From contig OZ241877.1 in assembly GCA_965203095.1 (NCBI GenBank), positions 160,001 to 224,000 of the forward strand: a DNA stretch of 64,000 nt. Reading direction: 5' to 3'. The stretch is from Bdellovibrionales bacterium (GTDB taxonomy: Bacteria; Bdellovibrionota; Bdellovibrionia; Bdellovibrionales; UBA1609). This document shows positions 13,786 to 49,475 of this stretch, piece by piece; position 1 is the stretch's first letter, and each line of letters begins with the position of its first letter. A program made the position numbers and the translations under genes. The notes under the pieces were generated by a model. That model was given only the letters and a program-made list of their open reading frames with translations, was not told the origin of the DNA and ran no database searches.

Positions 13786-14030
13786 GTTTTTATTTTATCT
13801 CTTTTGAGCTTATTATGTCCAATAAGAAAGTTAAGAGCAGGACAAAACACAGTATTTAATCGCCTGTGAAAAGGCTAAAAAATGATTCTGTCAGCGAAAT
13901 AATGAACATTTACAATCCCGTGAAAACGGGAATCCAAAAAAGCCTGATAGAATAGGCTTTTATAGGCTTTCTGCACAAAAATTTAAAAAATATTAAAGTT
14001 TTCCGGCCATCAGCCGATAAGATTGTTGAG

Positions 14031-14990
14031 ATGTTTTATTTACTATTTCCATTGTTCTTAATTTTTAATGCTCATTCTATGGGCCCTGATAGTCATGATC
14101 ATCATGATCACTCCAGCCATCATCCCAATGTTCAAAAAATAAAACTCACTAAACAAATTAAACAAGGGAAAAGAGTGGATTTGCGAGGGAAAAAATTGCA
14201 GGGAGTGAACTGGCAAAATTTGGACTTACGAAAAGTGAACTTGCGGGGGGCGATATTAACAAAAGCCAACTTACAAGGGGCAAATTTGCAAGGAGTGGAC
14301 TTAAGCCATACCAACATAGAACATGCGAATTTATCTCAAGCCAACTTGCAAAAAGCCAATTTGCGAGGGGCAAACTTAATGAAGACCAATTTGCAAGAGG
14401 CAAACTTACAGAATGCGATCCTCTATAGAGCGGATTTGCGATTAGCAAAAATGCGAGAAGCGAATTTAGATAAGGCGGACCTCCGGGAAGCAAAATTGCT
14501 GAAAACAGATTTGATGGAAGCCAACTTAAGCCATGCTGACTTGCGGAAAGCAAAATTATTTAAAGTGAATTTGCCGGGGGCGAAATTGACAGAGGCGGAT
14601 TTGCAGGGGGCGAACTTACAAAAAGCTGACTTGCGATATGCTAATCTGACAAGGACGGGCTTAATGTTTGCAGACCTGAGGCATGCCCAATTGAAGAATG
14701 CGAAATTGATAGAGGCAGTTTTGACGGGGGCGGACTTGCAAAATGCCAACTTGTATGCAAGTGTATTGTATAAAGCCGACTTGAAGTCAGCACTGTTGAA
14801 TAATGCTAACTTGCAGTATGCCAACTTGGAGGAAGCAAAAAACTTGCTGTCTGCGAGCTTTAATACTGCCGACTTGAACCATGCAATTATAAATAAAAGT
14901 TATAAAGATCAATTGCATGGAGCTAAAAACATAGAGCATGTTCAATGGATAGAAGGATTCTGTTATGATTGCGAAGGCCAGAATCCATAA
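14031..14990 (+). CDS. secreted pentapeptide-repeat protein with His-rich N-terminus and C-terminal CxxC (copy 1)
   Basis: signal peptide, DSHDHHDHSSHHP, long A(N/D)Lxx repeat tract, C-terminal WIEGFCYDC. Confidence 0.92.
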   Translation: MFYLLFPLFLIFNAHSMGPDSHDHHDHSSHHPNVQKIKLTKQIKQGKRVDLRGKKLQGVNWQNLDLRKVNLRGAILTKANLQGANLQGVDLSHTNIEHANLSQANLQKANLRGANLMKTNLQEANLQNAILYRADLRLAKMREANLDKADLREAKLLKTDLMEANLSHADLRKAKLFKVNLPGAKLTEADLQGANLQKADLRYANLTRTGLMFADLRHAQLKNAKLIEAVLTGADLQNANLYASVLYKADLKSALLNNANLQYANLEEAKNLLSASFNTADLNHAIINKSYKDQLHGAKNIEHVQWIEGFCYDCEGQNP

Positions 14991-15060
14991 AAGCCGGCTC
15001 CTGTGAAAATTCGTCTTTCCCCCCTATAAGCAAGAAGCCACTTCATAAAGCAAAACTATT

Positions 15061-15252
15061 TAGTCATCTGCGAAAAAGCCTCAGTTAGTCCTTCTCATTC
15101 TCTGCTTTTACAGGGGTAGACTTTTCAATCACTTTTGCCTAAAGGCCGTCCCATGAGGGTCCAAGGTATTGCCGTCCCGAAATGGGACGGACCTTTAGGC
15201 AAAGAAACTGAAGAATCCCCTGTGAATTATAGAGGTTTTTCACGAGCGACTA
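15061..15252. repeat. long imperfect-palindrome MITE/REPIN-like element (duplicated at 18352-18543)
   Basis: ends TAGTCATCTGCGAAAAAGC / GGTTTTTCACGAGCGACTA; nested stems around core GAGGGTCCAAGGTATTGCCGTCCCGAA (15155-15181). Confidence 0.8.
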
Positions 15253-15258
15253 TTTAGT

Positions 15259-17179
15259 CCCGACTTCCGCATTTTGTGATCAGGAATCCAGTATTATCAA
15301 GGGTTTGCGAGGAGGCTTGGGTCACTACATTCAAGACTTTAGTTTGTGATATTAGGACATAAATTTAATAGTTCGTGGGAAGGTTTTGTTAAAGGCTTTG
15401 TAGATATTCTTTTGTGTTTCGTTGATTGTAGAAGGCAGGAAGAATTTCTTTCCTGTGGATGTGTCCTCTATATAACTGATTTGGACAAGACTTAATTCTT
15501 GTTTAATGACTTCAAAACTAAGGTTTATATTTTTAGATTTCAAAACATGCCTCACAAAAACCGTCAGACCATAAGCTATAAAACATATTAACACATGAGC
15601 CTTTATCCTTCTCGGTGTCCAATGATAGATAGGTCTCATCTTCAAATCATGTTTGTTCATACGAAAAGCAGATTCTATTTGCCAAAGATTTTTGTATTTT
15701 TCCAATATGTTATGGGCCGTCTCTTTTTTGTTGTTTACAGCTACAGCACTGAATCCGTCCCATAAACGCTCCGCTTGTATCTTGTCTTCATTTAAAACAG
15801 CCCAACCCTTCTGTTTTAACTCCAAATACTTCTTAAGTCCTGTGTTTTTAACCAAATCCTTCACACGAACCCGACCACCTTTCATCTTTTCTTTTATCTT
15901 AACTAAAAGCTTTTCTCTTTCTTTTCTATCCTTATCCGCTCTGGCCCGATCATAACGGACAATGAGACGAAAACCCTCCCACTCATATTCCCTCGTCCAG
16001 CCTCGAACCTTTCTAAAATCCCCTCTTTTAGAAAAAGCAGGAGCTTCCGACAACACCCTCTCCTTCAAAGACTTCTTCATTGACTTCAGCCGGGCCCCAG
16101 CTATAAACTGAACTTTCCTTTTATCCATCTCAAAAAGATTTTTCTTGGAAAACATCCCACGATCAGCAACTAAAAACACATCCCGAATATCATAACTCTT
16201 TGATATATTATCTATCGTCTGGAGCAAAGTATTGCCCTCAAAAGTATTACCAGAAAAAAGCTCATAACCTATAGGCAAACCCCCTTTAGTCGTCATCAAA
16301 GACAGAACAACCTGTGTCTCTTTGATCTTATTGTCCTTGCTAAAACCACAACTCCTCAAATCATCCTCCATAAAACTCTCAAAATACAATGTCGTCACAT
16401 CAAAAAACACAACATCAATACGCTCTTTAAACAAACTCAATGTCCTCTCGGTTAGCTTGCCTTTTAAAATCTCACTATTCTTATAAACCTTGTCCATCAT
16501 CCGATAAACACGATCCAAAGGTATAGAATGAACACCAGCAGACCTTCTGCTTATGTCCAAAACACTACCCCGCTTACTCATTGGACTTTTTAACCGATGT
16601 AAAACCATATCCTTCAACAATTGACTGGCCTCTCTATGCTTATATCCCTCATTAAAACAGGACGATAAACCCAGCTCATCGTAAACCTTGCCAAATATGT
16701 CTGAAATCCCCACAACTTGACGACTCTCCTCTTTCAGACTTGGTGCATGAACCATATCTCCAGGATAAAAACTCCTCGCCTTCTCTCTTGCAGGGTCCTC
16801 CTTGGACTCCTCCTTAAAAAGTGGGGACTGATCTTTTTCTTTTAAGTCCCGAATAACTTTTCTGCCGATCTTGTAAAATAAAGCAATTTTCTCTTTATCG
16901 CTTTGATGGCAATGTCCTACACAGCCAATAGTCTCTTGTCTGACTTTTTTGCCTTCTCTACGGCTTCTGACCACACGGATGGAAACATGGCCATTGGCTT
17001 TTTTAACTTCACGAATAAACATACTGGCAGAATAAGAGAAGACAGAAGGCTTGTCAAGTAAATAAATTAAAAATATTGCTTTATTTTTATCAAGGGCCAC
17101 TACACCCCAACACAACAATAAAAAGCCCATAAACTGGGCCTTTTAAACCCTTACAACCCTACAAAATGCGGAAGTCGGG
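15259..17179 (-). mobile_element. IS1634-family insertion sequence, 1921 bp
   Basis: perfect 19-bp terminal inverted repeats CCCGACTTCCGCATTTTGT (15259-15277) and ACAAAATGCGGAAGTCGGG (17161-17179) enclosing a DDE transposase. Confidence 0.93.
15352..17022 (-). CDS. IS1634-family DDE transposase (start at ATG 17022)
   Basis: MFIREVKK.., VFFDVTTLYFES, GFSKD, VADRGM, YKNLWQIESAFR..K.DL..RPIYHW...RIKAHVLICF. Confidence 0.93.
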   Translation of the reverse strand: MFIREVKKANGHVSIRVVRSRREGKKVRQETIGCVGHCHQSDKEKIALFYKIGRKVIRDLKEKDQSPLFKEESKEDPAREKARSFYPGDMVHAPSLKEESRQVVGISDIFGKVYDELGLSSCFNEGYKHREASQLLKDMVLHRLKSPMSKRGSVLDISRRSAGVHSIPLDRVYRMMDKVYKNSEILKGKLTERTLSLFKERIDVVFFDVTTLYFESFMEDDLRSCGFSKDNKIKETQVVLSLMTTKGGLPIGYELFSGNTFEGNTLLQTIDNISKSYDIRDVFLVADRGMFSKKNLFEMDKRKVQFIAGARLKSMKKSLKERVLSEAPAFSKRGDFRKVRGWTREYEWEGFRLIVRYDRARADKDRKEREKLLVKIKEKMKGGRVRVKDLVKNTGLKKYLELKQKGWAVLNEDKIQAERLWDGFSAVAVNNKKETAHNILEKYKNLWQIESAFRMNKHDLKMRPIYHWTPRRIKAHVLICFIAYGLTVFVRHVLKSKNINLSFEVIKQELSLVQISYIEDTSTGKKFFLPSTINETQKNIYKAFNKTFPRTIKFMS

Positions 17180-18549
17180 TGTCAGCGAAATAATGAACAT
17201 TTACAATCCCGTGAAAACGGGAATCCAAAAAAGCCTGATAGAATAGGCTTTTATAGGCTTTCTGCACAAAAATTTAAAAAATATTAAAGTTTTCCGGCCA
17301 TCAGCCGATAAGATTGTTGAGATGTTTTATTTACTATTTCCATTGTTCTTAATTTTTAATGCTCATTCTATGGGCAATGATAGTCATGATCATCATGATC
17401 ACTCCAGCCATCATCCCAATGTTCAAAAAATAAAACTCACTAAACAAATTAAACAAGGGAAAAGAGTGGATTTGCGAGGGAAAAAATTGCAGGGAGTGAA
17501 CTGGCAAAATTTGGACTTACGAAAAGTGAACTTGCGGGGGGCGATATTAACAAAAGCCAACTTACAAGGGGCAAATTTGCAAGGAGTGGACTTAAGCCAT
17601 ACCAACATAGAACATGCGAATTTATCTCAAGCCAACTTGCAAAAAGCCAATTTGCGAGGGGCAAACTTAATGAAGACCAATTTGCAAGAGGCAAACTTAC
17701 AGAATGCGATCCTCTATAGAGCGGATTTGCGATTAGCAAAAATGCGAGAAGCGAATTTAGATAAGGCGGACCTCCGGGAAGCAAAATTGCTGAAAACAGA
17801 TTTGATGGAAGCCAACTTAAGCCATGCTGACTTGCGGAAAGCAAAATTATTTAAAGTGAATTTGCCGGGGGCGAAATTGACAGAGGCGGATTTGCAGGGG
17901 GCGAACTTACAAAAAGCTGACTTGCGATATGCTAATCTGACAAGGACGGGCTTAATGTTTGCAGACCTGAGGCATGCCCAATTGAAGAATGCGAAATTGA
18001 TAGAGGCAGTTTTGACGGGGGCGGACTTGCAAAATGCCAACTTGTATGCAAGTGTATTGTATAAAGCCGACTTGAAGTCAGCACTGTTGAATAATGCTAA
18101 CTTGCAGTATGCCAACTTGGAGGAAGCAAAAAACTTGCTGTCTGCGAGCTTTAATACTGCCGACTTGAACCATGCAATTATAAATAAAAGTTATAAAGAT
18201 CAATTGCATGGAGCTAAAAACATAGAGCATGTTCAATGGATAGAAGGATTCTGTTATGATTGCGAAGGCCAGGATCCATAAAAGCCGGCTCCTGTGAAAA
18301 TTCGTCTTTCCCCCCTATAAGCAAGAAGCCACTTCATAAAGCAAAACTATTTAGTCATCTGCGAAAAAGCCTCAGTTAGTCCTTCTCATTCTCTGCTTTT
18401 ACAGGGGTAGACTTTTCAATCACTTTTGCCTAAAGGCCGTCCCATGAGGGTCCAAGGTATTGCCGTCCCGAAATGAGACGGACCTTTAGGCAAAGAAACT
18501 GAAGAATCCCCTGTGAATTATAGAGGTTTTTCACGAGCGACTATTTAGT
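17180..18549. repeat. 1370-bp direct repeat, copy 2 (right flank of IS)
   Basis: begins on the base immediately after the right TIR; matches 13889-15258. Confidence 0.95.
17322..18281 (+). CDS. secreted pentapeptide-repeat protein (copy 2)
   Basis: identical to 14031-14990 except P->N near the N-terminus and N->D at the penultimate residue. Confidence 0.92.
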   Translation: MFYLLFPLFLIFNAHSMGNDSHDHHDHSSHHPNVQKIKLTKQIKQGKRVDLRGKKLQGVNWQNLDLRKVNLRGAILTKANLQGANLQGVDLSHTNIEHANLSQANLQKANLRGANLMKTNLQEANLQNAILYRADLRLAKMREANLDKADLREAKLLKTDLMEANLSHADLRKAKLFKVNLPGAKLTEADLQGANLQKADLRYANLTRTGLMFADLRHAQLKNAKLIEAVLTGADLQNANLYASVLYKADLKSALLNNANLQYANLEEAKNLLSASFNTADLNHAIINKSYKDQLHGAKNIEHVQWIEGFCYDCEGQDP

Positions 18550-18702
18550 CATCTGCGAAAAAGCTGGCCAAAAAACCTCGTCCTCTTTTTCCTGCTTTTG
18601 TCCAAAGGCCATTCCATGAGGGTCCAAGGTATTGCCGTCCCGAAATGGAATGGTCCTTTGGACAAAAAAAGTTAAAAAACAAAGGTTTTTCACGGACAAC
18701 TA
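18546..18702 (+). repeat. 157-bp MITE/REPIN-like hairpin element
   Basis: same terminal motifs and 27-nt core (18618-18644); near-perfect inverted copy at 21735-21891. Confidence 0.82.
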
Positions 18703-21586: not shown

Positions 21587-21734
21587 CATTAAGTTATACT
21601 GATTTTGTTTGAAAATTATGCTTTCTGGACTCTGTTTTGACCGGAAATCTCAAATGTAATCAGTATATTTCCGCTAAGATATCAACCAAAAAACTTAGGA
21701 AACCTGTGGATCATAATAAAAACCCACAAGTAAT

Positions 21735-21891
21735 TAGTCGTCTGTGAAAAACCTTTGTTTTTTAACTTTTTTTGTCCAAAGGACCATTCCATTTCGGGAC
21801 GGCAATACCTTGGACCCTCATGGAATGGCCTTTGGACAAAAGCGGGAAAAAGAGGACGAGGCTTTTTGTCCAGCTTTTTCACGAGCGACTA
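21735..21891 (-). repeat. 157-bp MITE/REPIN-like hairpin element, inverted relative to 18546-18702
   Basis: TAGTCGTCTGTGAAAAAC...GCTTTTTCACGAGCGACTA; core reverse-complemented at 21793-21819. Confidence 0.82.
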
Positions 21892-22090
21892 ATTATTGAA
21901 AATAACTGGTTTATGCACAGCGTAAAACTACCTGTTTCCTCTAAAGACGATGAACTTTTGGCTTAATTTTCCAACTTGCAATCAAAAGCTTTTTGTAGTT
22001 AAATCTATAGTGGCTAAGGCCATGCTTAAAGGAGATATAACCCATAGTTTGAGCCAATAGTCCAACTCGTATGCACTTGAGAAAAATAAC

Positions 22091-23362
22091 ATGCAAATCA
22101 TAAAATTAAAAACGATAAGTTTTGACAAAATGGCAGTTTCACAAAACAAACTGAATATCACTCATAAAGAACGATCCAATCTGTTGCCTTGGAAGGGGCA
22201 ATTTTCACCCCAGTTAATACAATCTTTATTAGAAACCTATTCTAAAAAATCTGACAAGATACTTGACCCCTTTATGGGAAGTGGAACAGTTTTACATGAA
22301 GCCTCTTTAATGAATCTGGACGCCATTGGCCTTGAATTGAATCCCGCGGCAGTAAAAATGGCCCAAATTTATCTGCTCAGTCATATTACTGTAGCAGAGA
22401 GGAAAAAACATATAAAAAATATTGAAAAGAAAATTGATCCTATTATCTTAGAAGATTTGCCTTTGTTTAAAAACTCTCACAAAGATTTTAACAAAACTTT
22501 AAGCTCTTACGATCTGTTTTACAGCATAAAAAAAATAATGAATAAAACAATACAACAGGAAAGCCGTTTAATTTTAGAGACCTATCTTATTTTGATTGAT
22601 CCAAAAGAGAGACAACTGACTAAAAAGAAAGCAAGAACTATTTGGCAAAAATTAAAGCTCTTAATTATCAGCTTGCCTTGCACAAAATCCAAACTGAGAA
22701 TAATCCATGGCGATTGCCGTAAAACACCTCTTAAAAAAAATTCTATTGATTTGGTAATCACATCCCCGCCATATATAAATGTATTCAACTATCATCAACA
22801 AAAAAGAACCTCTATAGAGGCGATGGGATGGAATATTTTATCAGTCGCAAAATCTGAAATAGGCTCAAACCGAAAACACAGAGGAAATAGATACCTTACA
22901 GTCATTCAATATTGCTTAGATATGGCAATGGTGCTTTATGAGTTAGGCAGGGTTTGTAAGCCCAAAGCCAAGCTAATTTTTGTAATTGGTCGCGAATCCC
23001 AAGTTAAAAAAACAAGTTTTTTTAACAGTGAAATTATAGCCAATATCGCCAAACAAGTTTTTAGTTTTAACATTGATCACCGGCACGAAAGATTTTTTAA
23101 AAATCGCTATGGCCAAATGATAAAAGAGGATATACTGCTATTGGCAAATCCAATAGAATCTTTAAAATACAATACTGCTCCCAATCAAATCGCTTATCAT
23201 GTTTTGACAGAGGCGAGTCACCGTGCACCGCAAGAGGAAAAAGAAGCTCTTACCCTTGCTATTGAATCAATAAACTCAGTAAATCATTCACCAATATATG
23301 AGTCCAAAAGAACTTTAGAAGAGTCTTTGTTCTATAATACTAAAGGGAAAAACAATGATTAA
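22091..23362 (+). CDS. site-specific DNA methyltransferase (N4-cytosine type)
   Basis: motif I LDPFMGSGT and motif IV ITSPPY. Confidence 0.88.
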   Translation: MQIIKLKTISFDKMAVSQNKLNITHKERSNLLPWKGQFSPQLIQSLLETYSKKSDKILDPFMGSGTVLHEASLMNLDAIGLELNPAAVKMAQIYLLSHITVAERKKHIKNIEKKIDPIILEDLPLFKNSHKDFNKTLSSYDLFYSIKKIMNKTIQQESRLILETYLILIDPKERQLTKKKARTIWQKLKLLIISLPCTKSKLRIIHGDCRKTPLKKNSIDLVITSPPYINVFNYHQQKRTSIEAMGWNILSVAKSEIGSNRKHRGNRYLTVIQYCLDMAMVLYELGRVCKPKAKLIFVIGRESQVKKTSFFNSEIIANIAKQVFSFNIDHRHERFFKNRYGQMIKEDILLLANPIESLKYNTAPNQIAYHVLTEASHRAPQEEKEALTLAIESINSVNHSPIYESKRTLEESLFYNTKGKNND

Positions 23363-23594: not shown

Positions 23595-24458
23595 TTAAGG
23601 TGTATTTTCCGTCATTTTCTCAAACTCCAGAGGGCTTTTATAGCCCAAAGCGGAATGGAGGCGGTGAGTATTATACCAACCTTCAATCCACTCAAAAATC
23701 TCTTCCTGTGCTGTATTCATACAGGAGTATACCTTGTTCCCTAATTCTTTTTTTAACAAGGAAAACCAACTTTCGCAATAGGCATTATCATAACAATTCC
23801 CTTTCCTTGACATAGATTGAATAAAGCCATATTTTCTAAGGTTTTCTCTGAACTCCTTGGCCATATATTGAACCCCACGATCAGAATGAACTATCAAGCC
23901 CTTTTTCACAGACCTTGTTTCAATAGCTCTATTGAAAGCTCTCAAAACAAGCTCTGAATACAAGCTGTAGCCCAAATTCCACCCCACTACCCGACGAGAG
24001 TAAAAATCCAAAAAAATAGCCAAATAAAGGAATTTTCCACCATAAGCTTTAAGATAAGTGATATCACTCCCCCAAACCTGATTGATAGCTGTCACAGCCA
24101 TTTCCTCTACTTTAAACACTCTTTGGCTAAAAGGGTGTTTGTCCATTGTGCTTGTCGTTTGGGGTTTGAAGGAAGGAGCAGACCTTGCTTTTAGACCCCA
24201 TTGGTTCATAATATAGCGGGCTTGATCCACAGAACAGGAAATGCCAGCATTTGTCAGATGGTGACTGACTTTTCTGTATCCATATAAGCCTTTATGAATA
24301 CGAAAAGCGGACTGAACTGTCTCTTCTCTCAGGTCCAAATTTGCAGGACGCCTTTTAAGGCTTTTGAAATAACCAGAGGGACTAACACCAATAGCTTGAC
24401 AAGCTCTTTTAACAGCTAGATATTTTGGCTTATGTTTAAAGATAAATTTGTGTTTCAT
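23595..24458 (-). CDS. IS3 transposase OrfB (integrase core)
   Basis: YGYRKV, WGSDITY, HSDRGVQY, SRKGNCYDNA..ES.F..LKKE, YNTHRLHSALGY.SP. Confidence 0.95.
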   Translation of the reverse strand: MKHKFIFKHKPKYLAVKRACQAIGVSPSGYFKSLKRRPANLDLREETVQSAFRIHKGLYGYRKVSHHLTNAGISCSVDQARYIMNQWGLKARSAPSFKPQTTSTMDKHPFSQRVFKVEEMAVTAINQVWGSDITYLKAYGGKFLYLAIFLDFYSRRVVGWNLGYSLYSELVLRAFNRAIETRSVKKGLIVHSDRGVQYMAKEFRENLRKYGFIQSMSRKGNCYDNAYCESWFSLLKKELGNKVYSCMNTAQEEIFEWIEGWYNTHRLHSALGYKSPLEFEKMTENTP

Positions 24459-24849: not shown

Positions 24850-25275
24850 TTAGAGCGTATTCACCCATCTAACTAAGTGCAGGCCATTAGCTCCCTTAAA
24901 CAGTTCTCCTCTCCTTTTTTCATTTCTGATCCTATATTTTATACTAATAATAGCCCCCGCCAAGTCCGCTCCAGTAAAGTCTGTCCGCCAAAAATCTGCA
25001 AGTCTCAAGTCCGCCCCTTCTAAATCTGCTTCTGACAAGTTAGCTGATGTAAAATCCGCCCCTATCAAGGTTGCCCCTGTTAAGTCTGCTCTTGTCAAGT
25101 CTGCCCAACACAAGTTCGCCCCTGCTAAGTCTTTTTTTCCTTGTCTGATTTGTTCGATTAGGTCTGCCTGTGTGGGATCACTCTCACAGGGTTTTTGTTC
25201 AGTCTCATAGGATGTTGGACAGTGAGCAAACCCCGGCAAGCTCATTAAAAGGATAATGCTTAATAGTATTTTCAT
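24850..25275 (-). CDS. secreted pentapeptide-repeat protein
   Basis: signal MKILLSIILLMSLPGFA, LIEQIRQGKKDL cap, ADLxx repeats. Confidence 0.88.
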   Translation of the reverse strand: MKILLSIILLMSLPGFAHCPTSYETEQKPCESDPTQADLIEQIRQGKKDLAGANLCWADLTRADLTGATLIGADFTSANLSEADLEGADLRLADFWRTDFTGADLAGAIISIKYRIRNEKRRGELFKGANGLHLVRWVNTL

Positions 25276-25356
25276 TGGTTGTCTTATAGCAGGATTGTCC
25301 GGGAAAGTAAAGAATTAGAGAGTCTTTTGTAAATTTTTCACAAAAAGGGCAAAAGC

Positions 25357-25692
25357 TTAATCCACCCAGTTAATCTTGTCTGTGTTCAATGCTCCCTTCC
25401 ATTTCAGTTTTTGGGGTTTTATCTTTGAGCTTATGTAAGCCCCTGCCAAGTTTGCTCCCTTTAATTTTGTATGTTTCAAGTTTATGATATGCATTCTTGC
25501 CCCTTGCAAGTTTGCCCCCTGGAGATCAAGCCCTTGAAGGTTGGCAAAAGCAAGATTGACCCCTACAAGGTCTTTTTTTCCTTTCTTTATTTGTTTAATA
25601 AGCTTGGCTTGTTTTATTGGATCAAATGGGTTTAGTAAATTCCCCTGGGTTGGGATTGCCATACATAAAAGGATTAAAATCAGAGTTTTCAT
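25357..25692 (-). CDS. secreted pentapeptide-repeat protein
   Basis: signal peptide, LIKQIKKGKKDL cap, ANLQG repeats, C-terminus GALNTDKINWVD. Confidence 0.87.
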   Translation of the reverse strand: MKTLILILLCMAIPTQGNLLNPFDPIKQAKLIKQIKKGKKDLVGVNLAFANLQGLDLQGANLQGARMHIINLKHTKLKGANLAGAYISSKIKPQKLKWKGALNTDKINWVD

Positions 25693-25875
25693 ACTTAAAT
25701 TATACCGGCCGGCGACTCCCGAACCTAATTTTTTATGAATTTTGAGTCAAAACTGGCGGGAATGAGACACTTTTGGCCCTTATTTGCTATCAAAACCTAC
25801 CTTTTCATTGCATATTCGGGGAAATAAAGAGTCGGCAACTGTGGCCAGCGGATAAAGTCAAAGGAAATAAAGAGA

Positions 25876-26046
25876 CTATTGCTTTGCTAAAAGTCTATCC
25901 AGCTTAGACTCTATGCTGTCCATTCTTATTTCAAGCTTATCTATTCTCTTAATGATTGGCTTAATCATATATCCAAAGCCAGTCAATAAAAGAGCTAAGA
26001 AACTAATAAGGAATATCCCAGCGGTAAATAAAACTGATAAGTCCAT
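25876..26046 (-). CDS. 56-aa small membrane protein (TM helix plus coiled coil), below the ORF-track size cutoff
   Basis: MDLSVLFTAGIFLISFLALLLTGFGYMIKPIIKRIDKLEIRMDSIESKLDRLLAKQ*; preceded by TTGACT-17bp-GATAAT. Confidence 0.7.
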   Translation of the reverse strand: MDLSVLFTAGIFLISFLALLLTGFGYMIKPIIKRIDKLEIRMDSIESKLDRLLAKQ

Positions 26047-26186
26047 ACATCCATTATCAGTTCATTGTCCGGGAAAGTCAAGCCTTTGTTTAAAGTGCTC
26101 AAACATCAGCCAGAATAGAGCTTATTTGATAGCTGAGGCTTTGGATATAGATAGAGATTAGAGAGAAAAATAGAGGGTTCTGAGGC

Positions 26187-26852
26187 TTAATCAAAAATAT
26201 CTTCAAAAAAATGGATTATATTAAAATTAGCTTTATTGCACACCATAACTCCTACAACTCCCCCCCCCAGAGCACCCTGTGTCCAATAATTAGTAGAATA
26301 ATACAACCACCTTGCTTTTCCTCCAGTTAAAACTCCGGTCGCCACGGTAGTGAAAAACAATGCAAAGTAGGTTGATAGGAAAGCCAGCTTTGGGATCTCG
26401 TCTCCTTTTGTAAGGTTTCCTATAAGACAACCAATGACTCCGCCACCTAAAATCGATCCTCCCAAGCCAGTAAAAAAGGGAATTAAGGCAGGAATGATGG
26501 CAGTTTGAGTTCCTTCCAAGATAAAATGATCTTTTAAGTAAGAGTAGTTTTCTAATTCTATTCCATTACAGGCCCGGAGATTATGAATAGAGATAGAAGA
26601 CTTAAAGTTTTCTGGGATGGGTTTTGAAAAAGAGGGGAGCAGGTCTGTTTGATTTTCTTTATCAGTAAAATCAATATAACAAACAGCTTGGCCATCTTGA
26701 ATAATAACTGCTTTGCTAATGATAGCTTTTTTTGGATCAAGCTGTTCTATTAGCTCTGTGTTCTGAGATTGAACAATGGGATCAGTGGAGTCTGGCAAGC
26801 TGGCAAAAGCCGGCAAGTTCATTAAAAGAATAAGGCTTAATAGTATTTTCAT
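26187..26852 (-). CDS. secreted hypothetical protein with C-terminal Gly-rich hydrophobic helices
   Basis: same signal peptide as neighbours (MKILLSLILLMNLPAFA); GxxxG-rich segments GLGGSILGGGVIG and GALGGGVVG. Confidence 0.8.
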   Translation of the reverse strand: MKILLSLILLMNLPAFASLPDSTDPIVQSQNTELIEQLDPKKAIISKAVIIQDGQAVCYIDFTDKENQTDLLPSFSKPIPENFKSSISIHNLRACNGIELENYSYLKDHFILEGTQTAIIPALIPFFTGLGGSILGGGVIGCLIGNLTKGDEIPKLAFLSTYFALFFTTVATGVLTGGKARWLYYSTNYWTQGALGGGVVGVMVCNKANFNIIHFFEDIFD

Positions 26853-26924
26853 AGAGTTTGGTTATAGCAGGATTGTCCGGGAAAGTAAAGTCTTTTGTAA
26901 ATTTTTCACACAAAGGGCAAAAGC

Positions 26925-27437
26925 TTAATCCACCCAGTTAATCTTGTCTGTGTTCAATGCTCCGCTGTCCATAATCAGGTCACGATATATTGAGTCTATA
27001 AAAGCATACTTCAAGCTTGTCCCTCTCAAGTCTGCTTTTGTCAAGTCTGTCCCTCTCAAGTCTGCAAATATCAAGTCTGCCCCTCTCAAGTCTGCCTTTG
27101 TCAAGTCTATCTCTCTCAAGTCTATCCCTATCAAGTCTGTCCCTCTTAAGTCTGCCTCTCTCAAGTTCGCCCCTCTAAAGTCTGCAAATATCAAGTCTGT
27201 CCCTCTCAAGTCTGCCTCCCACAAGTTCGCCCCTCTCAAGTCTGCTTTTGTCAAGTCTGTCCCTCTCAAGTCTGTCCCTCTCAAGTCTGCCCCTCTAAAA
27301 TCTCTCCCTCTCAAATCTTTTTTCCCTTGTCTGATTTGTTCGATCAGTTCTGCTTGTTTTGTGGGATCAACTGGCTCTGTGTTTTCAGAAAAAGCCGGCA
27401 AGCTCATTAAAAGGATAAGGCTCAATAGCATTTTCAT
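26925..27437 (-). CDS. secreted pentapeptide-repeat protein
   Basis: ADLRG/TDLRG repeats encoded by 15-nt DNA repeats; C-terminus GALNTDKINWVD. Confidence 0.9.
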   Translation of the reverse strand: MKMLLSLILLMSLPAFSENTEPVDPTKQAELIEQIRQGKKDLRGRDFRGADLRGTDLRGTDLTKADLRGANLWEADLRGTDLIFADFRGANLREADLRGTDLIGIDLREIDLTKADLRGADLIFADLRGTDLTKADLRGTSLKYAFIDSIYRDLIMDSGALNTDKINWVD

Positions 27438-27518
27438 TGTGTTTGTTATAGCAGGATTGTCCGGGAAAGTAAAGAATTAGAGGGTCTATTGTAATTTTTT
27501 CACAAAAAGGGCAAAAGC

Positions 27519-28121
27519 TTAATCCACCCATTTAATCTTGTCTGTGTTCAATGCTCCGCTGTGCATAATCATGTCACGATATTTTGATTTTATAAAAGCC
27601 CCTTCTAAGTCCGCTCTGTGCAATCTTGTCCCTGTTAAAATCGCCCCCTTCATATTCGCTCCCTGCAAGATCGCCCCTTTCAAGTCTGCCCCTGTTAAAT
27701 TCGCCCGCCCAAAGTCCGCTCTTGTTAGGGTTGCCTCTTGTAAGTTTGCCTCTGTCAGGTTCGCTTTCCATAATTTTGCCTCTGTCAGAATTGCCCGTCT
27801 CATTTTTGCCCGGAATAAGTTTGCCTTTATTAGTTTTGCCCACTTTAAGTTTGCCCACACTAAGATTGCCCCCTCCAAGTCTGCCCCTGACAAAAAAGCA
27901 CTCCTTAAATTCGCCCTTGTCAAGTCTATCCCCTTTAAGTTTCTCTCGCTTAAGTCCACACTCACTAAGTCTTTTTTTCCCTGTTTTATTTTTTCAATGA
28001 GTTGGGTCTTTAAAGTTTCTTTTTTTAAGACAATATCCACCCTTTCAGAGTCTGTTGTCACTGTCAAGTCTGCCTGAGAAGGGATTGCAAAAAATAAAAG
28101 AATTAAAATAATTTGTTTCAT
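27519..28121 (-). CDS. secreted pentapeptide-repeat protein
   Basis: signal peptide, LIEKIKQGKKDL cap, repeats, GALNTDKIKWVD. Confidence 0.9.
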   Translation of the reverse strand: MKQIILILLFFAIPSQADLTVTTDSERVDIVLKKETLKTQLIEKIKQGKKDLVSVDLSERNLKGIDLTRANLRSAFLSGADLEGAILVWANLKWAKLIKANLFRAKMRRAILTEAKLWKANLTEANLQEATLTRADFGRANLTGADLKGAILQGANMKGAILTGTRLHRADLEGAFIKSKYRDMIMHSGALNTDKIKWVD

Positions 28122-28273
28122 AGTCCCTCCGTTTTAGGTTTCCTGTTTATCTTATCGGCTGATTGTCTATTTTTGTTTAGTCCTTTTTTCTCAAAGCTGG
28201 ACTTTAGTTCTTTTAATTCTGCTGAGGGTTTTTTAGGTATAGAGATTAGAGAAAAAGTAGAAGGTTCTGAGGC

Positions 28274-28801
28274 TTAATCCACCCAGTTAATCTTGTCTGT
28301 GTTCAATGCTCCGCTTTTCATAATCATGTCACGATATTTTGAGTCTATATAAGCAAAACTTAGGTTTGTTCCTTTAAACTTTGCCCCTCTCAAGTCCGCC
28401 TCTCTCAAGTTCGCCCCTGCCATTTTTGCCCCTCTCAAGTCTGCCCCTATTAAAATCGCCGCTTCCAAGTCCGCCCTTAATAAGATCGCTTTATACAAGT
28501 TCGCAAAAGCCAGATTCCCCCCTTCCAAGTCCGTAGCAGTCAAGTCCGCATACTTCAAGTCTGCCCTTCTTAAGTCCGCCTCTCTCAAGTTCGCCCCCGA
28601 TAAGTTCCCCCCTATCAAGTTTACCTTTTGCAAGCTTTTTCTCCCTTGTTTTATTTGTTCAATCAGTTCGCTCGCCCCTCGATAGGCCAACCCTACTTGG
28701 GATTGAGGAGTCCTTTCCCCTTGAGTTTCTTTTTTGGCAAACTTAAGAGACTGGCAAGATAAAATAAAAGACGATATAAAAATATAAAACAGGATTTTCA
28801 T
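28274..28801 (-). CDS. pentapeptide-repeat lipoprotein
   Basis: lipobox-like ILSC, LIEQIKQGRK cap, repeats, GALNTDKINWVD. Confidence 0.88.
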   Translation of the reverse strand: MKILFYIFISSFILSCQSLKFAKKETQGERTPQSQVGLAYRGASELIEQIKQGRKSLQKVNLIGGNLSGANLREADLRRADLKYADLTATDLEGGNLAFANLYKAILLRADLEAAILIGADLRGAKMAGANLREADLRGAKFKGTNLSFAYIDSKYRDMIMKSGALNTDKINWVD

Positions 28802-43880: not shown

Positions 43881-44000
43881 CCTGGATCTCAACACTAAAG
43901 TTTTGTTCATGCTATAATTTCAGGAAAAATATTTAATTAAAAAACTGTTCAATCTTTAAACAGTTTTTTTAAAAAAACAGGTTTTGTTTAAAGGTTCAGT

Positions 44001-44039
44001 AGGCTAAAACTTGACTTTTAGCCTGTTTTTAGTTATAAA
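44001..44039 (+). promoter_or_regulatory. sigma70 promoter with palindrome straddling -35, repeated before each array gene
   Basis: AGGCTAAAA-CTTGAC-TTTTAGCCT; TTGACT-17bp-TATAAA; AGGAGG RBS downstream. Confidence 0.72.
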
Positions 44040-44080
44040 TGTTTCATATTCATATTAAAGCATAAAAATAAGGAGGATTT

Positions 44081-45040
44081 ATGTTTTTAAAGCTTTTAAC
44101 TTTGATGATGATGATTTTTACTTTAAATGCTTATGCCAATCCATCTTGTTCGGTAGTAGAGCAAGCATATCATAACTATCCGGAAAATGATGCTAATTCT
44201 ATGAATTATGCTCATTGCCTTATCTTTAACGGGGATAAAGAAAAGGCTTTAGCTTTTATCCAACAGCTTGACAACCAAGGCTATATTCCTGGGGTTTTTT
44301 ATATGGCCAAATATATTCAGCACCAATGGAATTATGGAACAAGGGATTATGATCGTTTAGATGAAATTATAATGGCTTATCTCCGGGTAATATCTTTAAT
44401 TGAAGGGGCTTATGACTATCCCCAATTTAATGGGCCACGTTTTGATGGTGCTCTGCTCTGGTATGAGCAAACAGACCAGATGGAGCTGAACTCCCATTAT
44501 AATGTTCCTATGACTTACTTTCATAAGTTTAAAAAAGGAGCCGCAGGCATTTATAATTTATATTTAATGCAATCTTCTAATTACAGTGGGGAGAGGGATT
44601 TAAACACTTACCCCACTTACAATTTATATACTGAAGACAGTTTGGAAAAAACCATTGAGCATGCCAACCGTTGCCTTTCCCTACCGATGAAAGATTATTT
44701 TATAGAGGAGGTCTACCAGTTTTATCAATCAGCTTGTCAGGTATTAAAAGATTCTGCCCAAGCCCTTTTGCCATTAGAGAGGGAAAGGCTCTCCCTTTTA
44801 AACAAAAGGTCTTGCAGGGATACTTTGCCGAATTGTCAAGAGTATGATGAATTGGTTAAAGAGAAAATGTTTCCGATTATTGGAGAAACTCATGATGAAT
44901 TGGATATAATATTTGATGAGCTGAATCGCTTTTTAGAAAAGAAGGATGCTTGCTTAGAGGCAGAACTTGAAAGAAGACAAAGACTTTTTGATGAGCAGGG
45001 AATAATCCTAACTGATGAATTTACTTGTGATATATCATAG
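44081..45040 (+). CDS. secreted helical (Sel1/TPR-like) hypothetical protein, tandem paralog 1
   Basis: signal MFLKLLTLMMMIFTLNAYA; conserved Cys; highly similar to the next three ORFs; unique C-terminal tail. Confidence 0.85.
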   Translation: MFLKLLTLMMMIFTLNAYANPSCSVVEQAYHNYPENDANSMNYAHCLIFNGDKEKALAFIQQLDNQGYIPGVFYMAKYIQHQWNYGTRDYDRLDEIIMAYLRVISLIEGAYDYPQFNGPRFDGALLWYEQTDQMELNSHYNVPMTYFHKFKKGAAGIYNLYLMQSSNYSGERDLNTYPTYNLYTEDSLEKTIEHANRCLSLPMKDYFIEEVYQFYQSACQVLKDSAQALLPLERERLSLLNKRSCRDTLPNCQEYDELVKEKMFPIIGETHDELDIIFDELNRFLEKKDACLEAELERRQRLFDEQGIILTDEFTCDIS

Positions 45041-45160
45041 AAATTCGTTTTTTTAAAAAAACAAGTTTTGTTTAAAGGTTCAGTAGGTTAAAACTTGACT
45101 TTTAGCCTATTTTTAGTTATAAATGTTTCATATTGAAGTATAAAAAATTAAGGAGGATTT

Positions 45161-46132
45161 ATGTTTTTTAAGCTCTTAACTTTGATGATGATGATTTTTA
45201 CTTTAAATGCTTATGCCAATCCATCCTGTCGGGAATGGGAGGAAGAATATCATTATTCTCCAGATTATCTCCCGGATGTTATGGGTTATGCCCGTTGCCT
45301 TATCTTTAACGGGGATAAAGAAAAGGCTTTGGCTTTTATTCAAGACCTGGACAATCGAGGCTATATCCCTGGGGTTTTTTATATGGCCAAATATATTCAT
45401 GACAATTGGACTTTTAAGACAATGAATTATGATAAGTTAGATGAAACTATAGTGGCTTATCTCCGGGTAATATCTTTAATTGAAGGGACTTTTGACTACC
45501 CCCGATTTAATGGCCAAAATTTTGATACTGTCCTGCTCTGGCATGAGCAAACAGACCAGATGGAGCTGAACTCCCATTATAATGTTCCTATGACTTACTT
45601 TCATAAGTTTAAAAAAGGAGCGGCAGGTATTTATAATTTATATTTAATGCAATCTCCTAATTACAGTGGGGAGAGGGATTTAAACACTTACCCCACTTAC
45701 AATTTATATACTGAGGACAGTTTGGAAAAAACTATTGAGCATGCCAACCGTTGCCTTTCCCTACCGATGAAAGATTATTTTATAGAGGAGGTCTATAGGT
45801 TTTATCAATCGGCTTGTCAGGTATTAAAAGATTCTGCCCAAGCCCTTTTGCCATTAGAGGGGGAGAGGCTCTCCCTTTTAAACAAAAGATCTTGCAGGGA
45901 TACTTTGCCGGATTGTCAAGAGTATGATGAATTGGTTAAAGAGAAAATGTTTCCGATTATTGGAGAAACTCATGATGAATTGGAAGTGATATTTGATGAG
46001 TTGAGTCGCTTTGTAGAGGAGAAGGAAGCCCGTGATGCAGAGATAAGCAGAAAATTTCAGGAAGAACTGGACGCTGTCACTTCAGATGAGGAACACCTTG
46101 AACTTTTACGAAAATATAAACTGATTGATTAA
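45161..46132 (+). CDS. tandem paralog 2
   Basis: same leader; divergent N-terminal segment SCREWEEEYH... Confidence 0.85.
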   Translation: MFFKLLTLMMMIFTLNAYANPSCREWEEEYHYSPDYLPDVMGYARCLIFNGDKEKALAFIQDLDNRGYIPGVFYMAKYIHDNWTFKTMNYDKLDETIVAYLRVISLIEGTFDYPRFNGQNFDTVLLWHEQTDQMELNSHYNVPMTYFHKFKKGAAGIYNLYLMQSPNYSGERDLNTYPTYNLYTEDSLEKTIEHANRCLSLPMKDYFIEEVYRFYQSACQVLKDSAQALLPLEGERLSLLNKRSCRDTLPDCQEYDELVKEKMFPIIGETHDELEVIFDELSRFVEEKEARDAEISRKFQEELDAVTSDEEHLELLRKYKLID

Positions 46133-46277
46133 ATTATTTTGATATTGAGAATTCTGGCTTTAAACAGTTTTTTTAAAAAATAAGTTTTGTTTAAAGGTTC
46201 AGCAGGTTAAAACTTGACTTTTAGCCTGTTTTTAGTTATAAATGTCTCATATTAAAGCATAAAAATAAGGAGGATTT

Positions 46278-47249
46278 ATGTTTTTTAAGCTCTTAACTTT
46301 GATGATGATGATTTTTACTTTAAATGCTTATGCCAATCCATCTTGTTCGGTAGTAGAGCAAGCATATCATGCTCATCCGGAACATAATGCTACTTCTATG
46401 AATTATGCTCATTGCCTTATCTTTAACGGGGATAAAGAAAAGGCTTTGGCTTTTATCCAACAGCTTGACAGACAAGGTTATATTCCTGGGGTTTTTTATA
46501 TGGCCAAATACATTCAGCACCAATGGAATTATGGAACAAGGGATTATGATCGTTTAGATGAAATTATAATGGCTTATCTCCGGGCAATCTCTTTAATTGA
46601 AGGGACTTTTGACTACCCCCGATTTAATGGCCAAAATTTTGATGGTGCTCTGCTCTGGTATGAGCAAACAGACAGTATGGAGCTGAACTCCCATTATCAG
46701 GTTCCTATGACTTACTTTCATAAATTTACACAAGGAGCTATCGGCATTTATAATTTATATTTAATGCAATCTCCTAATTATAGTGGAGGGAGGGATTTAA
46801 ACACTTACCCCACTTACAATTTATATACTGAGGACAGTTTGGAAAAAACTATTGAGCATGCCAACCGTTGCCTTTCCCTACCAATGAAGATTTATTTTAT
46901 AGAGGAGGTCTATAGGTTTTATCAATCAGCCTGTCAGGTATTAAAAGATTCTGCCCAAGCCCTTTTGCCATTAGAGGGGGAAAGGCTGTCCCTTTTAAAC
47001 AAAAGATCTTGCAGGAGTGCTTTGCCGAATTGTCAAGAGTATAATGACTTGGCTGATAGGGAAATGATTCCAATTATTGATAAAGTTTTTGATGAGTTAG
47101 ATGTAATATTTGATGAGTTGAACCGCTTTTTAGAAGAGAAGGAAGCTCGTGATGCAGAGATAAGCAGAAAATTTCAGGAAGAACTGGACGCTGTCACTTC
47201 AGATGAGGAACACCTTGAACTTTTACGAAAATATGACCTGATTGATTAA
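46278..47249 (+). CDS. tandem paralog 3
   Basis: same leader and body; unique patch YNDLADREMIPIIDKVF. Confidence 0.85.
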   Translation: MFFKLLTLMMMIFTLNAYANPSCSVVEQAYHAHPEHNATSMNYAHCLIFNGDKEKALAFIQQLDRQGYIPGVFYMAKYIQHQWNYGTRDYDRLDEIIMAYLRAISLIEGTFDYPRFNGQNFDGALLWYEQTDSMELNSHYQVPMTYFHKFTQGAIGIYNLYLMQSPNYSGGRDLNTYPTYNLYTEDSLEKTIEHANRCLSLPMKIYFIEEVYRFYQSACQVLKDSAQALLPLEGERLSLLNKRSCRSALPNCQEYNDLADREMIPIIDKVFDELDVIFDELNRFLEEKEARDAEISRKFQEELDAVTSDEEHLELLRKYDLID

Positions 47250-47399
47250 ATTATTTTGATATTGAGAAACTTGGCTTTCCTGCCTCAACTTTTTTTTAAA
47301 AACAAGTTTTGTTTAAAGGTTCAGTAGGCTAAAACTTGACTTTTAGCTTGTTTTTAGTTATAAATGTTTCATATTGAGGCATAAAAATAAGGAGGATTT

Positions 47400-48371
47400 A
47401 TGTTTTTAAAGCTCTTAACCTTGATGATGATGATTTTTACTTTAAATGCTTATGCCAATCCATCTTGTTCGGTAGTAGAGCAAGCATATCATAACTATCC
47501 GGAAAATGATGCTAATTCTATGAATTATGCTCATTGCCTTATCTTTAACGGGGATAAAGAAAAGGCTTTAGCTTTTATCCAACAGCTTGACAGACAAGGT
47601 TATATTCCTGGGGCTTTTTATATGGCCAAACACATTCAGCACAGATGGAATTATGGAACAAGGGATTATGATCGTTTAGATGAAATTATAATGGCTTATC
47701 TCCGGGCAATCTCTTTAATTGAAGGGGCTTATGACTACCCCCGATTTAATGGCCAAAATTTTGATACTGTCCTGCTCTGGCATGAGCAAACAGACCAGAT
47801 GGAGCTGAGTTCTCATTATCGGGTCCCTATGACTTACTTTCATAAGTTTAAAAAAGGAGCGGCAGGTATTTATAATTTATATTTAATGCAATCTTCTAAT
47901 TACAGTGGGGAGAGGGATTTAAACACTTACCCCACTTACAATTTATATACTGAGGACAGTTTGGAAAAAACTATTGAGCATGCCAACCGTTGCCTTTCCC
48001 TACCGATGAAAGATTATTTTATAGAGGAGGTCTATAGGTTTTATCAATCGGCTTGTCAGGTATTAAAAGATTCTGCCCAAGCCCTTTTGCCATTAGAGGG
48101 GGAGAGGCTCTCCCTTTTAAACAAAAGATCTTGCAGGGATACTTTGCCGGATTGTCAAGAGTATGATGAATTGGTTAAAGAGAAAATGTTTCCGATTATT
48201 GGAGAAACTCATGATGAATTGGAAGTGATATTTGATGAGTTGAGTCGCTTTGTAGAGGAGAAGGAAGCCCGTGATGCAGAGATAAGCAGAAAATTTCAGG
48301 AAGAACTGGACGCTGTCACTTCAGATGAGGAACACCTTGAACTTTTACGAAAATATAAACTGATTGATTAA
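47400..48371 (+). CDS. tandem paralog 4
   Basis: N-terminus like copy 1, C-terminal half like copy 2. Confidence 0.85.
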   Translation: MFLKLLTLMMMIFTLNAYANPSCSVVEQAYHNYPENDANSMNYAHCLIFNGDKEKALAFIQQLDRQGYIPGAFYMAKHIQHRWNYGTRDYDRLDEIIMAYLRAISLIEGAYDYPRFNGQNFDTVLLWHEQTDQMELSSHYRVPMTYFHKFKKGAAGIYNLYLMQSSNYSGERDLNTYPTYNLYTEDSLEKTIEHANRCLSLPMKDYFIEEVYRFYQSACQVLKDSAQALLPLEGERLSLLNKRSCRDTLPDCQEYDELVKEKMFPIIGETHDELEVIFDELSRFVEEKEARDAEISRKFQEELDAVTSDEEHLELLRKYKLID

Positions 48372-48517
48372 ATTATTTTGATATTGAGAATTCTGGCTTT
48401 AAACAGTTTTTTTAAAAAAACAGGTTTTGTTTAAAGGTTCAGTAGGCTAAAACTTGACTTTTAGCCTGTTTTTAGTTATAAATGTTTCATATTAAAGCAT
48501 AAAAATAAGGAGGATTT

Positions 48518-48613
48518 ATGTTTTTTAAGCTCTTAACTTTGATGATGATGATTTTTACTTTAAATGCTTATGCCAACCCGGCTTGTCAGGAATGGAAGCA
48601 AACTCTCACATAG
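48518..48613 (+). pseudogene. truncated fifth paralog (promoter, RBS and signal peptide only)
   Basis: MFFKLLTLMMMIFTLNAYANPACQEWKQTLT*. Confidence 0.85.
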
Positions 48614-48641
48614 TTTTAAAATGAATTTTTAATTCAAACAA

Positions 48642-49475
48642 ATGACAGGTAATAAAATGAGTATAAAAGATTCAACAAAGGCCGATATTTTTTGGATTGA
48701 TTCTCATGCTCATATAGATAAATTGAGCGGTCCTGTTGAAGAGACATTAAAAAAGGCTCAAGAGGCGAAGGTTTTTCGGATTTTGACTATTGGCACAGAG
48801 CCAGAGGATTGGGAAAAGGTAATATCCCTTTGCCGGCAAAATTTTCCGGAAGTTTACGGTGCCTTGGGGATGCACCCCCACACTGCCAAGGACTTTAATG
48901 AGGACTGCGAAAAGTTTTTACAAAAACATTTGCCCTCAAAGCGAATTGTCGCTATGGGGGAAATTGGTTTAGATTATTATTATGAAAATTCAAAAAGGGA
49001 AACTCAAAAAGAGGTTTTTGAAAAACAACTCTCACTGGCTTATGATTTGAGAATGCCGGTGGAAATTCATACCCGACAAGCGGAAGAGGACACCAGCTTT
49101 TTTTTACAGCAATTCCGTGGGAAGTTAAGAGGGCTTTTGCACTGTTTTTCCAGTTCATACAGTTTAGCAAAACAAGCCTTAGACTATGGTTTTGATATTT
49201 CCTTTAGTGGGATTTTGACTTTTAAAAATGCGGAAAACTTAAGAGAAATTTGTAAAAAAATCCCTTTAGATCGCCTCCATATAGAAACTGATTCTCCTTT
49301 TTTATCCCCTGTGCCCTATCGTGGGAAGGAAAATCATCCCTCCCGCACTGCTCTTGTGGCCCAGCAGGTGGCGGAACTGCATTCTATAGATTTGCCATTG
49401 CTATCCGAACAGTTGAGGCAAAACACTTGGAATCTTTTCCCTAAAATCCAACAAGAAGAGAAAGAATCTTTTTGA
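48642..49475 (+). CDS. tatD: TatD-family deoxyribonuclease
   Basis: IDSHAH, GMHPH, GEIGLDYYY, IHTR, LHCFS, ETDSPFLSPVPYRGK.N. Confidence 0.93.
   Translation: MTGNKMSIKDSTKADIFWIDSHAHIDKLSGPVEETLKKAQEAKVFRILTIGTEPEDWEKVISLCRQNFPEVYGALGMHPHTAKDFNEDCEKFLQKHLPSKRIVAMGEIGLDYYYENSKRETQKEVFEKQLSLAYDLRMPVEIHTRQAEEDTSFFLQQFRGKLRGLLHCFSSSYSLAKQALDYGFDISFSGILTFKNAENLREICKKIPLDRLHIETDSPFLSPVPYRGKENHPSRTALVAQQVAELHSIDLPLLSEQLRQNTWNLFPKIQQEEKESF

Follow-up and report, generated by a model that had tools for sequence, protein, structure and literature searches.

How an insertion sequence (IS) comes to be bracketed by two copies of a whole gene is the question raised by a locus in a Bdellovibrionales bacterium (assembly GCA_965203095.1, contig OZ241877.1), of which positions 160,001 to 224,000 were analysed; this 64,000-nucleotide stretch is called the window below, and its positions are counted from its first letter. 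At the locus, an IS1634-family element of 1,921 bp (15259..17179, minus strand), with perfect 19-bp inverted repeats at both ends (15259..15277 and 17161..17179, no strand assigned), separates two direct copies of a 1,370-bp sequence (13889..15258 and 17180..18549, both plus strand) that lie at an offset of 3291 and beyond which identity collapses. The limits of the element were set by comparison with three other full copies in the genome, and the comparison confirmed what a sequence-only reading had described, namely a direct repeat flush with the left and right IS ends at 15258/15259 and 17179/17180 in the geometry of a target-site duplication; the match extends one base further by chance (C at 15259 and C at 18550). 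We consider it reasonably probable that the insertion itself produced the 1,370-bp repeat, as a true target-site duplication.

The duplicated sequence carries a pentapeptide-repeat gene on the plus strand (copy 1, 14031..14990, 319 aa, PF00805 at 192 bits; copy 2, 17322..18281) and a dispersed hairpin resembling a miniature inverted-repeat transposable element (MITE), which together with the first 4 nt of the next such hairpin occupies 15061..15258 in the left copy (no strand). The two copies mismatch at four positions (14085, 14086, 14982 and 15185), i.e., at three places, and both coding differences, P19N and N318D in copy 2 relative to copy 1, are non-synonymous, as had been noted from the letters alone. 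The earlier description of the duplication as carrying the whole gene and the hairpin stands; for the complete promoter, three sigma-70-like sites were found against 3.2 expected by chance, and a promoter is not demonstrated.

The genome, 1.80 Mb in two contigs (C1 and C2), holds four full copies of the element, and flush repeats flank all four (84, 1,161, 1,370 and 3,343/3,350 bp). The copy at C1:971122-973042 is identical to the IS of the window and has a 1,161-bp repeat with no mismatches; those at C1:1227586 and C1:1350952 belong to a 96%-identical variant of the element and have repeats of 3,343/3,350 bp (no substitutions, one 7-bp indel) and 84 bp (no mismatches), respectively. At every copy in this genome the repeat is flush, long and variable in length. 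The earlier proposal that this transposase duplicates genes at kilobase scale is thereby upheld, with three of the four repeats above 1 kb, and measurement of the flanking repeats at all genomic copies revealed no short duplications elsewhere, the outcome that would have spoken against it. At C1:1227586 one cut lies in an 889-aa gene, which is intact to the left of the IS and reduced to a stub to its right, and the other in a murG-like gene directly before murC, which is a stub on the left (model positions 2-170) and full on the right (368 aa), its open reading frame (ORF) running continuously across the outer boundary of the 3.3-kb repeat. The full copy matches TIGR01133 over positions 2-352 at 215 bits, below the cut-off of 250, and passes for both Pfam GT28 domains. 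The stretch between the two cuts also contains a whole pentapeptide gene, which is doubled. The element can land inside a gene and yet leave a complete copy of that gene.

Related loci were fetched from eight genomes of the same family (60), from two collection scans (158) and as a further set (20). Three loci without both end motifs and one tandem pair were left out of the first set, 42 duplicates and 31 loci without the motif pair out of the second (of the 85 left, only 16 came with 2 kb of flank at each side), and three without the motif pair out of the third. A separate collection scan, made with a single transposase protein, returned no loci, and a scan with an alignment returned 78. The end motif CC(C/T)GA(C/G)TT is conserved down to about 31% protein identity. 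Flush repeats of at least 20 bp were present in 60 of the 89 scorable related copies (49/72 plus 11/17); one had only a 4-bp match, and the 5-6-bp-only duplication usual for the family was found at none of the 89. Exact flush repeats of 4-12 bp occurred in a single one of 128 relatives (4 bp) with a detector that had no positive control for 5-6-bp duplications, and elements of 31-34% identity, sought as a short-duplication control group, also made long repeats. The 64 related repeat lengths, four of them from short contigs, range from 30 to 1,701 bp with a median of 186; nine exceed 514 bp and three exceed 1 kb. Repeats above 1 kb are found at 3/4 copies in this genome versus 3/64 in relatives (Fisher p 0.0015, with n=4 and relatives that are not independent), and length differences among seven genomes are borderline (Kruskal p 0.048; 0.051 without this genome). 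Titled records holding related elements are mostly from Bdellovibrionales, which we give as context only.

Both ends of the repeats carry one sequence signature. The first target base outward from either IS end is A at 106 of 120 junctions (background 32%), and each repeat end taken separately has a 5'-A at 47/53. The same context is seen at both ends, with A at -3, T at -2, a base other than T at -1 and then A-R-A-A-A, which gives the half-site consensus A-T-V^A-R-A-A-A, A-rich from +2 to +4 at both cuts. That one half-site recurs at both repeat ends points to the transposase as the most likely maker of both junctions; since two such half-sites cannot overlap in one 5-6-bp palindromic site, the two IS ends appear to select separate pieces of duplex. 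Boxes resembling -10 elements near the cuts numbered 3 to 14 of 53 per counting interval, in a count made without a shuffled control. A rigid pre-formed DNA loop is expected to show helical phasing. The repeat lengths, many of which are under 100 bp, show no 10-11-bp helical periodicity (p about 0.99; 0.37-0.60) and fit a shifted exponential (Kolmogorov-Smirnov p 0.60) or a log-normal distribution (p 0.81) equally well. Taken together, the half-site common to both ends, the absence of helical phasing and the near-exponential length distribution reduce the options to two testable models.

The first of these, which we favour with somewhat better than even confidence, holds that strand transfer is direct and widely staggered, with one end joined before the other, and that the host then copies the interval. 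A Tn5-like cut-and-paste transposase would join its two DNA ends to two separate A-rich half-sites, located on opposite strands with tens to thousands of bases between them, rather than to a single bent site of 5-6 bp. One end would most likely be joined first; this first nick would remove helical phasing, the tethered second end would be captured at a roughly exponential distance, and host strand-displacement synthesis or a passing replication fork would copy each strand of the interval. A duplication of 3.3 kb is far beyond the reach of a single bent target site. In the second model, the IS ends behind a replication fork join two sister duplexes at offset positions, and resolution gives a duplication, or a deletion if the offset is reversed. 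Bridging of sister chromatids in this way would explain two independent half-sites, the missing helical phasing and the perfect copies, and possibly some of the 28/89 related copies without a repeat. It requires extra strand cleavage or recombination steps, however, and there is no orientation bias relative to local GC skew (transposase on the G-rich strand in 31/56 cases, p 0.50), although local skew is a noisy proxy; we regard it as unlikely, if worth keeping in view.

A two-step origin was also weighed, in which an insertion with a short duplication is followed by duplication of the adjacent sequence through a second transposition or through unequal recombination between nearby insertions. 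Recombination between IS copies does occur: flanks have been exchanged between copies at L038, L039 and L040 in one related genome (G007) and at L048 and L064 in another (G102), the exchanged flanks carrying repeats of 26, 524, 800 and 408 bp. In addition, the three differences between the copies in the window could be allelic. The short-duplication starting state is nearly absent, however (1/128 and 1/17, both 4 bp), a short tandem footprint was found at none of 72 outer boundaries, the T peak that a shared short A...T site would produce 4-6 bases inside the repeat is missing, and the two steps would have to have happened at all four copies in this genome. We therefore consider this origin improbable. 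Since IS copies exchanged flanks, the long repeats also act as tags that record recombination between copies.

The duplication could in principle be an artefact of assembly around a repeated IS. Read support was judged from assembled contigs, in which depth is not copy number. Among the contigs of run X7, which may be the source sample, the collapsed repeat has a depth of 45.8 compared with about 20-23 for the flanks and about 90-110 for the IS; in run X9, from another sample, the repeat has 14.8 compared with 6-7 for the flanks, one flank contig reaching 14.9. The depths in both runs fit two copies; the contigs break off at the repeats, and none bridges the locus. The three letters that tell the copies apart are those of the left copy in the X7 contig and those of the right copy in the X9 contig, and the right junction of the IS copy at C1:971122 is also present in X9. 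Depths, letters and junction together argue against the misassembly that the sequence-only reading had named as a danger, although they are not proof. An artefact would be in keeping with the lack of a spanning contig, with a right junction covered by only 30 bases on the IS side and with another near-perfect 2,197-bp tandem in the genome that has no IS; against it stand the roughly twofold depth of the repeat in two runs, the opposite copy letters in these runs, the C1:971122 junction in a different sample, and the same geometry and half-site signature in many separately assembled genomes. We judge it highly improbable. Two joints, 15209-13885 and 13915-18597, lie within dispersed repeats and were not counted as alleles. 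Coverage of the stretch is only partial in runs X4 and X1, and the runs that hold parts of it include sponge metagenomes (context only).

The arrangement has consequences for the genes that are hit. With ORFs called mechanically, 7 of 52 events had both cuts within a single predicted ORF, compared with 25.2 expected from random placement of the same lengths, and none of 20,000 simulations gave so low a number. Whole ORFs were copied in 5 of the 52. In most surviving insertions, no gene lacks an intact copy on one side or the other. Where only one boundary cuts a gene, an intact copy remains on one side of the IS, so surviving insertions would mostly be harmless and some would duplicate whole genes. 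A preference for copying the 3' ends of genes (22 versus 13, p 0.18) was not significant.

Several observations weigh against a duplication made by the transposase at insertion and against the gene-sparing that would follow from it. No empty allele was found in 20 related genomes, the closest of which are about 70% identical and not syntenic here. The window copies differ at three places although their IS is identical to another copy, and in this genome the 5'-A is present at only 5/8 half-sites, the right junction in the window starting with T. Among relatives, 28 of the 89 copies have no flush repeat, for only five of which flank exchange accounts, and these relatives are not independent, most coming from a few genomes. 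Single cuts are also rarer in ORFs (22 and 27 versus about 37.5 expected); part of the gene-sparing is therefore a plain intergenic bias, and survival and targeting are not distinguishable as its cause.

It is conceivable that this lineage decouples its two strand transfers almost completely, each end taking its own half-site at an element-specific distance (here ~1 kb), which would make the element a self-contained gene duplicator; we put this forward tentatively and think it less probable than not. If true, the element could enter essential genes such as murG without loss and, once decayed, leave lasting paralogs behind; some of the many pentapeptide-repeat genes of this genome may have arisen through it. 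Duplication of this kind would allow genes to be copied directly where no homology existed beforehand, and would help an IS to persist when the genome is small and gene-dense.

Long variable duplication is itself already known as a basic behaviour of IS1549 and IS1634. In its accessible portions, a review of 2008 gives 5-6-bp AT-rich target duplications as the norm of the IS1634 family, lists the long-repeat members as exceptions, and reports long variable direct repeats of 8-514 bp for IS1549 and IS1634, with no mechanistic model proposed at that time (PMC2266710); the accessible parts of PMC11004492 and PMC3053259 give no repeat lengths for IS1634. Our literature searches found no model for these long duplications since that review and no paper on kilobase-scale duplications by the family, most subscription journals lying outside their coverage. 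The present element resembles IS1634 of Mycoplasma mycoides subsp. mycoides SC and IS1549 of Mycobacterium smegmatis in family and in its long variable repeats; unlike the figures given for them in the accessible part of the review, repeats here reach 1,161-3,343 bp, up to 6.5 times the review maximum, and copy whole genes. What is new here is the 3.3-kb scale, the two-sided half-site and the shortage of gene-breaking insertions, the latter two being measured in this work. Long variable duplications also surround restriction-modification genes inserted with long target duplication, although these have no transposase and no inverted ends, and the examples seen in the available part of that source are of about 46 bp (PMC2853133).

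The transposase gene (15352..17022, minus strand) probably starts at M37 of a 592-aa ORF beginning at 17130: residues 1-34 have a pLDDT below 50 in the predicted structure, and M37 is invariant in 34 homologous sequences, as is the DDE triad D244, D323 and E486 (592-aa numbering). The protein scores 349 bits against the IS1634 family model NF033559 (cut-off 100). Its YREK motif is incomplete (Y479-x2-L482-x3-E486-x6-K493), with L in place of R. Size (1,921 bp) and C-----YT ends, which begin CCCGACTT, agree with the family, typical members of which are 1.5-2.0 kb long with such ends and a DDE transposase without the R of YREK, so far as the review sections seen describe them (PMC2266710). The 5-6-bp AT-rich duplication of typical members is found at 0/4 copies in this genome and at no case in this subgroup, whereas variable long repeats flush with both ends, as in IS1549 and IS1634, are found at 4/4 here and in the 60/89 relatives. 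The predicted fold (pLDDT 74) is closest to Tn5 transposase (E 5e-7, TM 0.30, 12% identity); with a TM-score of only 0.30, the match shows the catalytic fold and not the mode of target binding, and Tn5/IS50 of the IS4 family, its best structural match, makes a fixed 8-9-bp duplication according to the available text of the review (PMC2266710). Many related transposases have one in-frame TGA inside the matched stretch (L029-L037 in genome G073, L045-L048 in G102), which may lie upstream of the true start or reflect read-through or decay.

The right limit of the window duplication lies 4 nt inside the TAGT end of a second hairpin element (18546..18702, no strand), as had been read from the sequence; this ~160-bp dispersed hairpin folds with z = -7.0 and has 16 near-full matches in the genome. 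Both window cuts fall in dispersed repeats (11 and 18 spanning matches). The structure-guided targeting proposed on this basis is unsupported, because the folding of cut sites as a group resembles that of random DNA (mean quantiles 0.52 and 0.57, n=53), and five of the other six cuts in the genome lie outside dispersed repeats, with 1-3 spanning matches each, the sixth having five. The MITE-like hairpins are ~160-200 bp long with TAGTC...GAC ends and short AT-rich flanking duplications (window 15061-15258, 18352-18702 and 21731-21895), and their roughly 100 genome matches make up about 0.5% of the genome.

The suggestion that the IS seeded the other arrays of the window is not supported: a sensitive search detected no IS end near the array at 44-48.7 kb. 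This array (43963-48700) has five units of about 1.1 kb, the fifth a stub, encoding proteins of 322-326 aa that have signal-peptide-like starts and match TPR weakly, and a closely similar pair lies at C1:1593380-1595437. Solo left-end remnants of the IS, 93-94% identical, occur at C1:1039302-1039435 (135 bp) and C1:1359826-1359934. The former is flanked by two diverged versions of a two-gene unit, one gene of which is pilin-like; the versions match at 89% over 1.3 kb. A distance of 92 bp, in which a small dispersed repeat lies, separates the remnant from where the second version begins, and the remnant is not flush; judged from this arrangement, it may be a decayed duplication. An end-like motif between two paralogs at C1:726936 is the second and still weaker of only two fossil candidates, both weak, and a 412-bp repeat with a 2.1-kb gap at C1:765734 was rejected as an IS product, the gap having neither IS ends nor a transposase.

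Three of the four IS copies lie in or beside pentapeptide-repeat genes, and the genome has about 33 pentapeptide-matching stretches, many in tandem clusters (e.g., window 24944-28700). C1:1728325-1732723 holds a head-to-tail 2,197-bp duplication with one mismatch, no IS and a junction overlap of 5 bases. It includes part of a tRNA-synthetase-like ORF, now present as a long copy and a shortened one, and may be a real recent duplication or an assembly artefact. The whole second contig (C2:1-17191) is a tandem array in which a 1,109-bp unit, with short ORFs only, recurs about 15.5 times; it may be a concatemer derived from a small circular DNA, or may not belong to the genome. Lastly, an IS3-family transposase at window 23595-24458 (NF033516, 274 bits) appears to interrupt an ORF starting at 23355.

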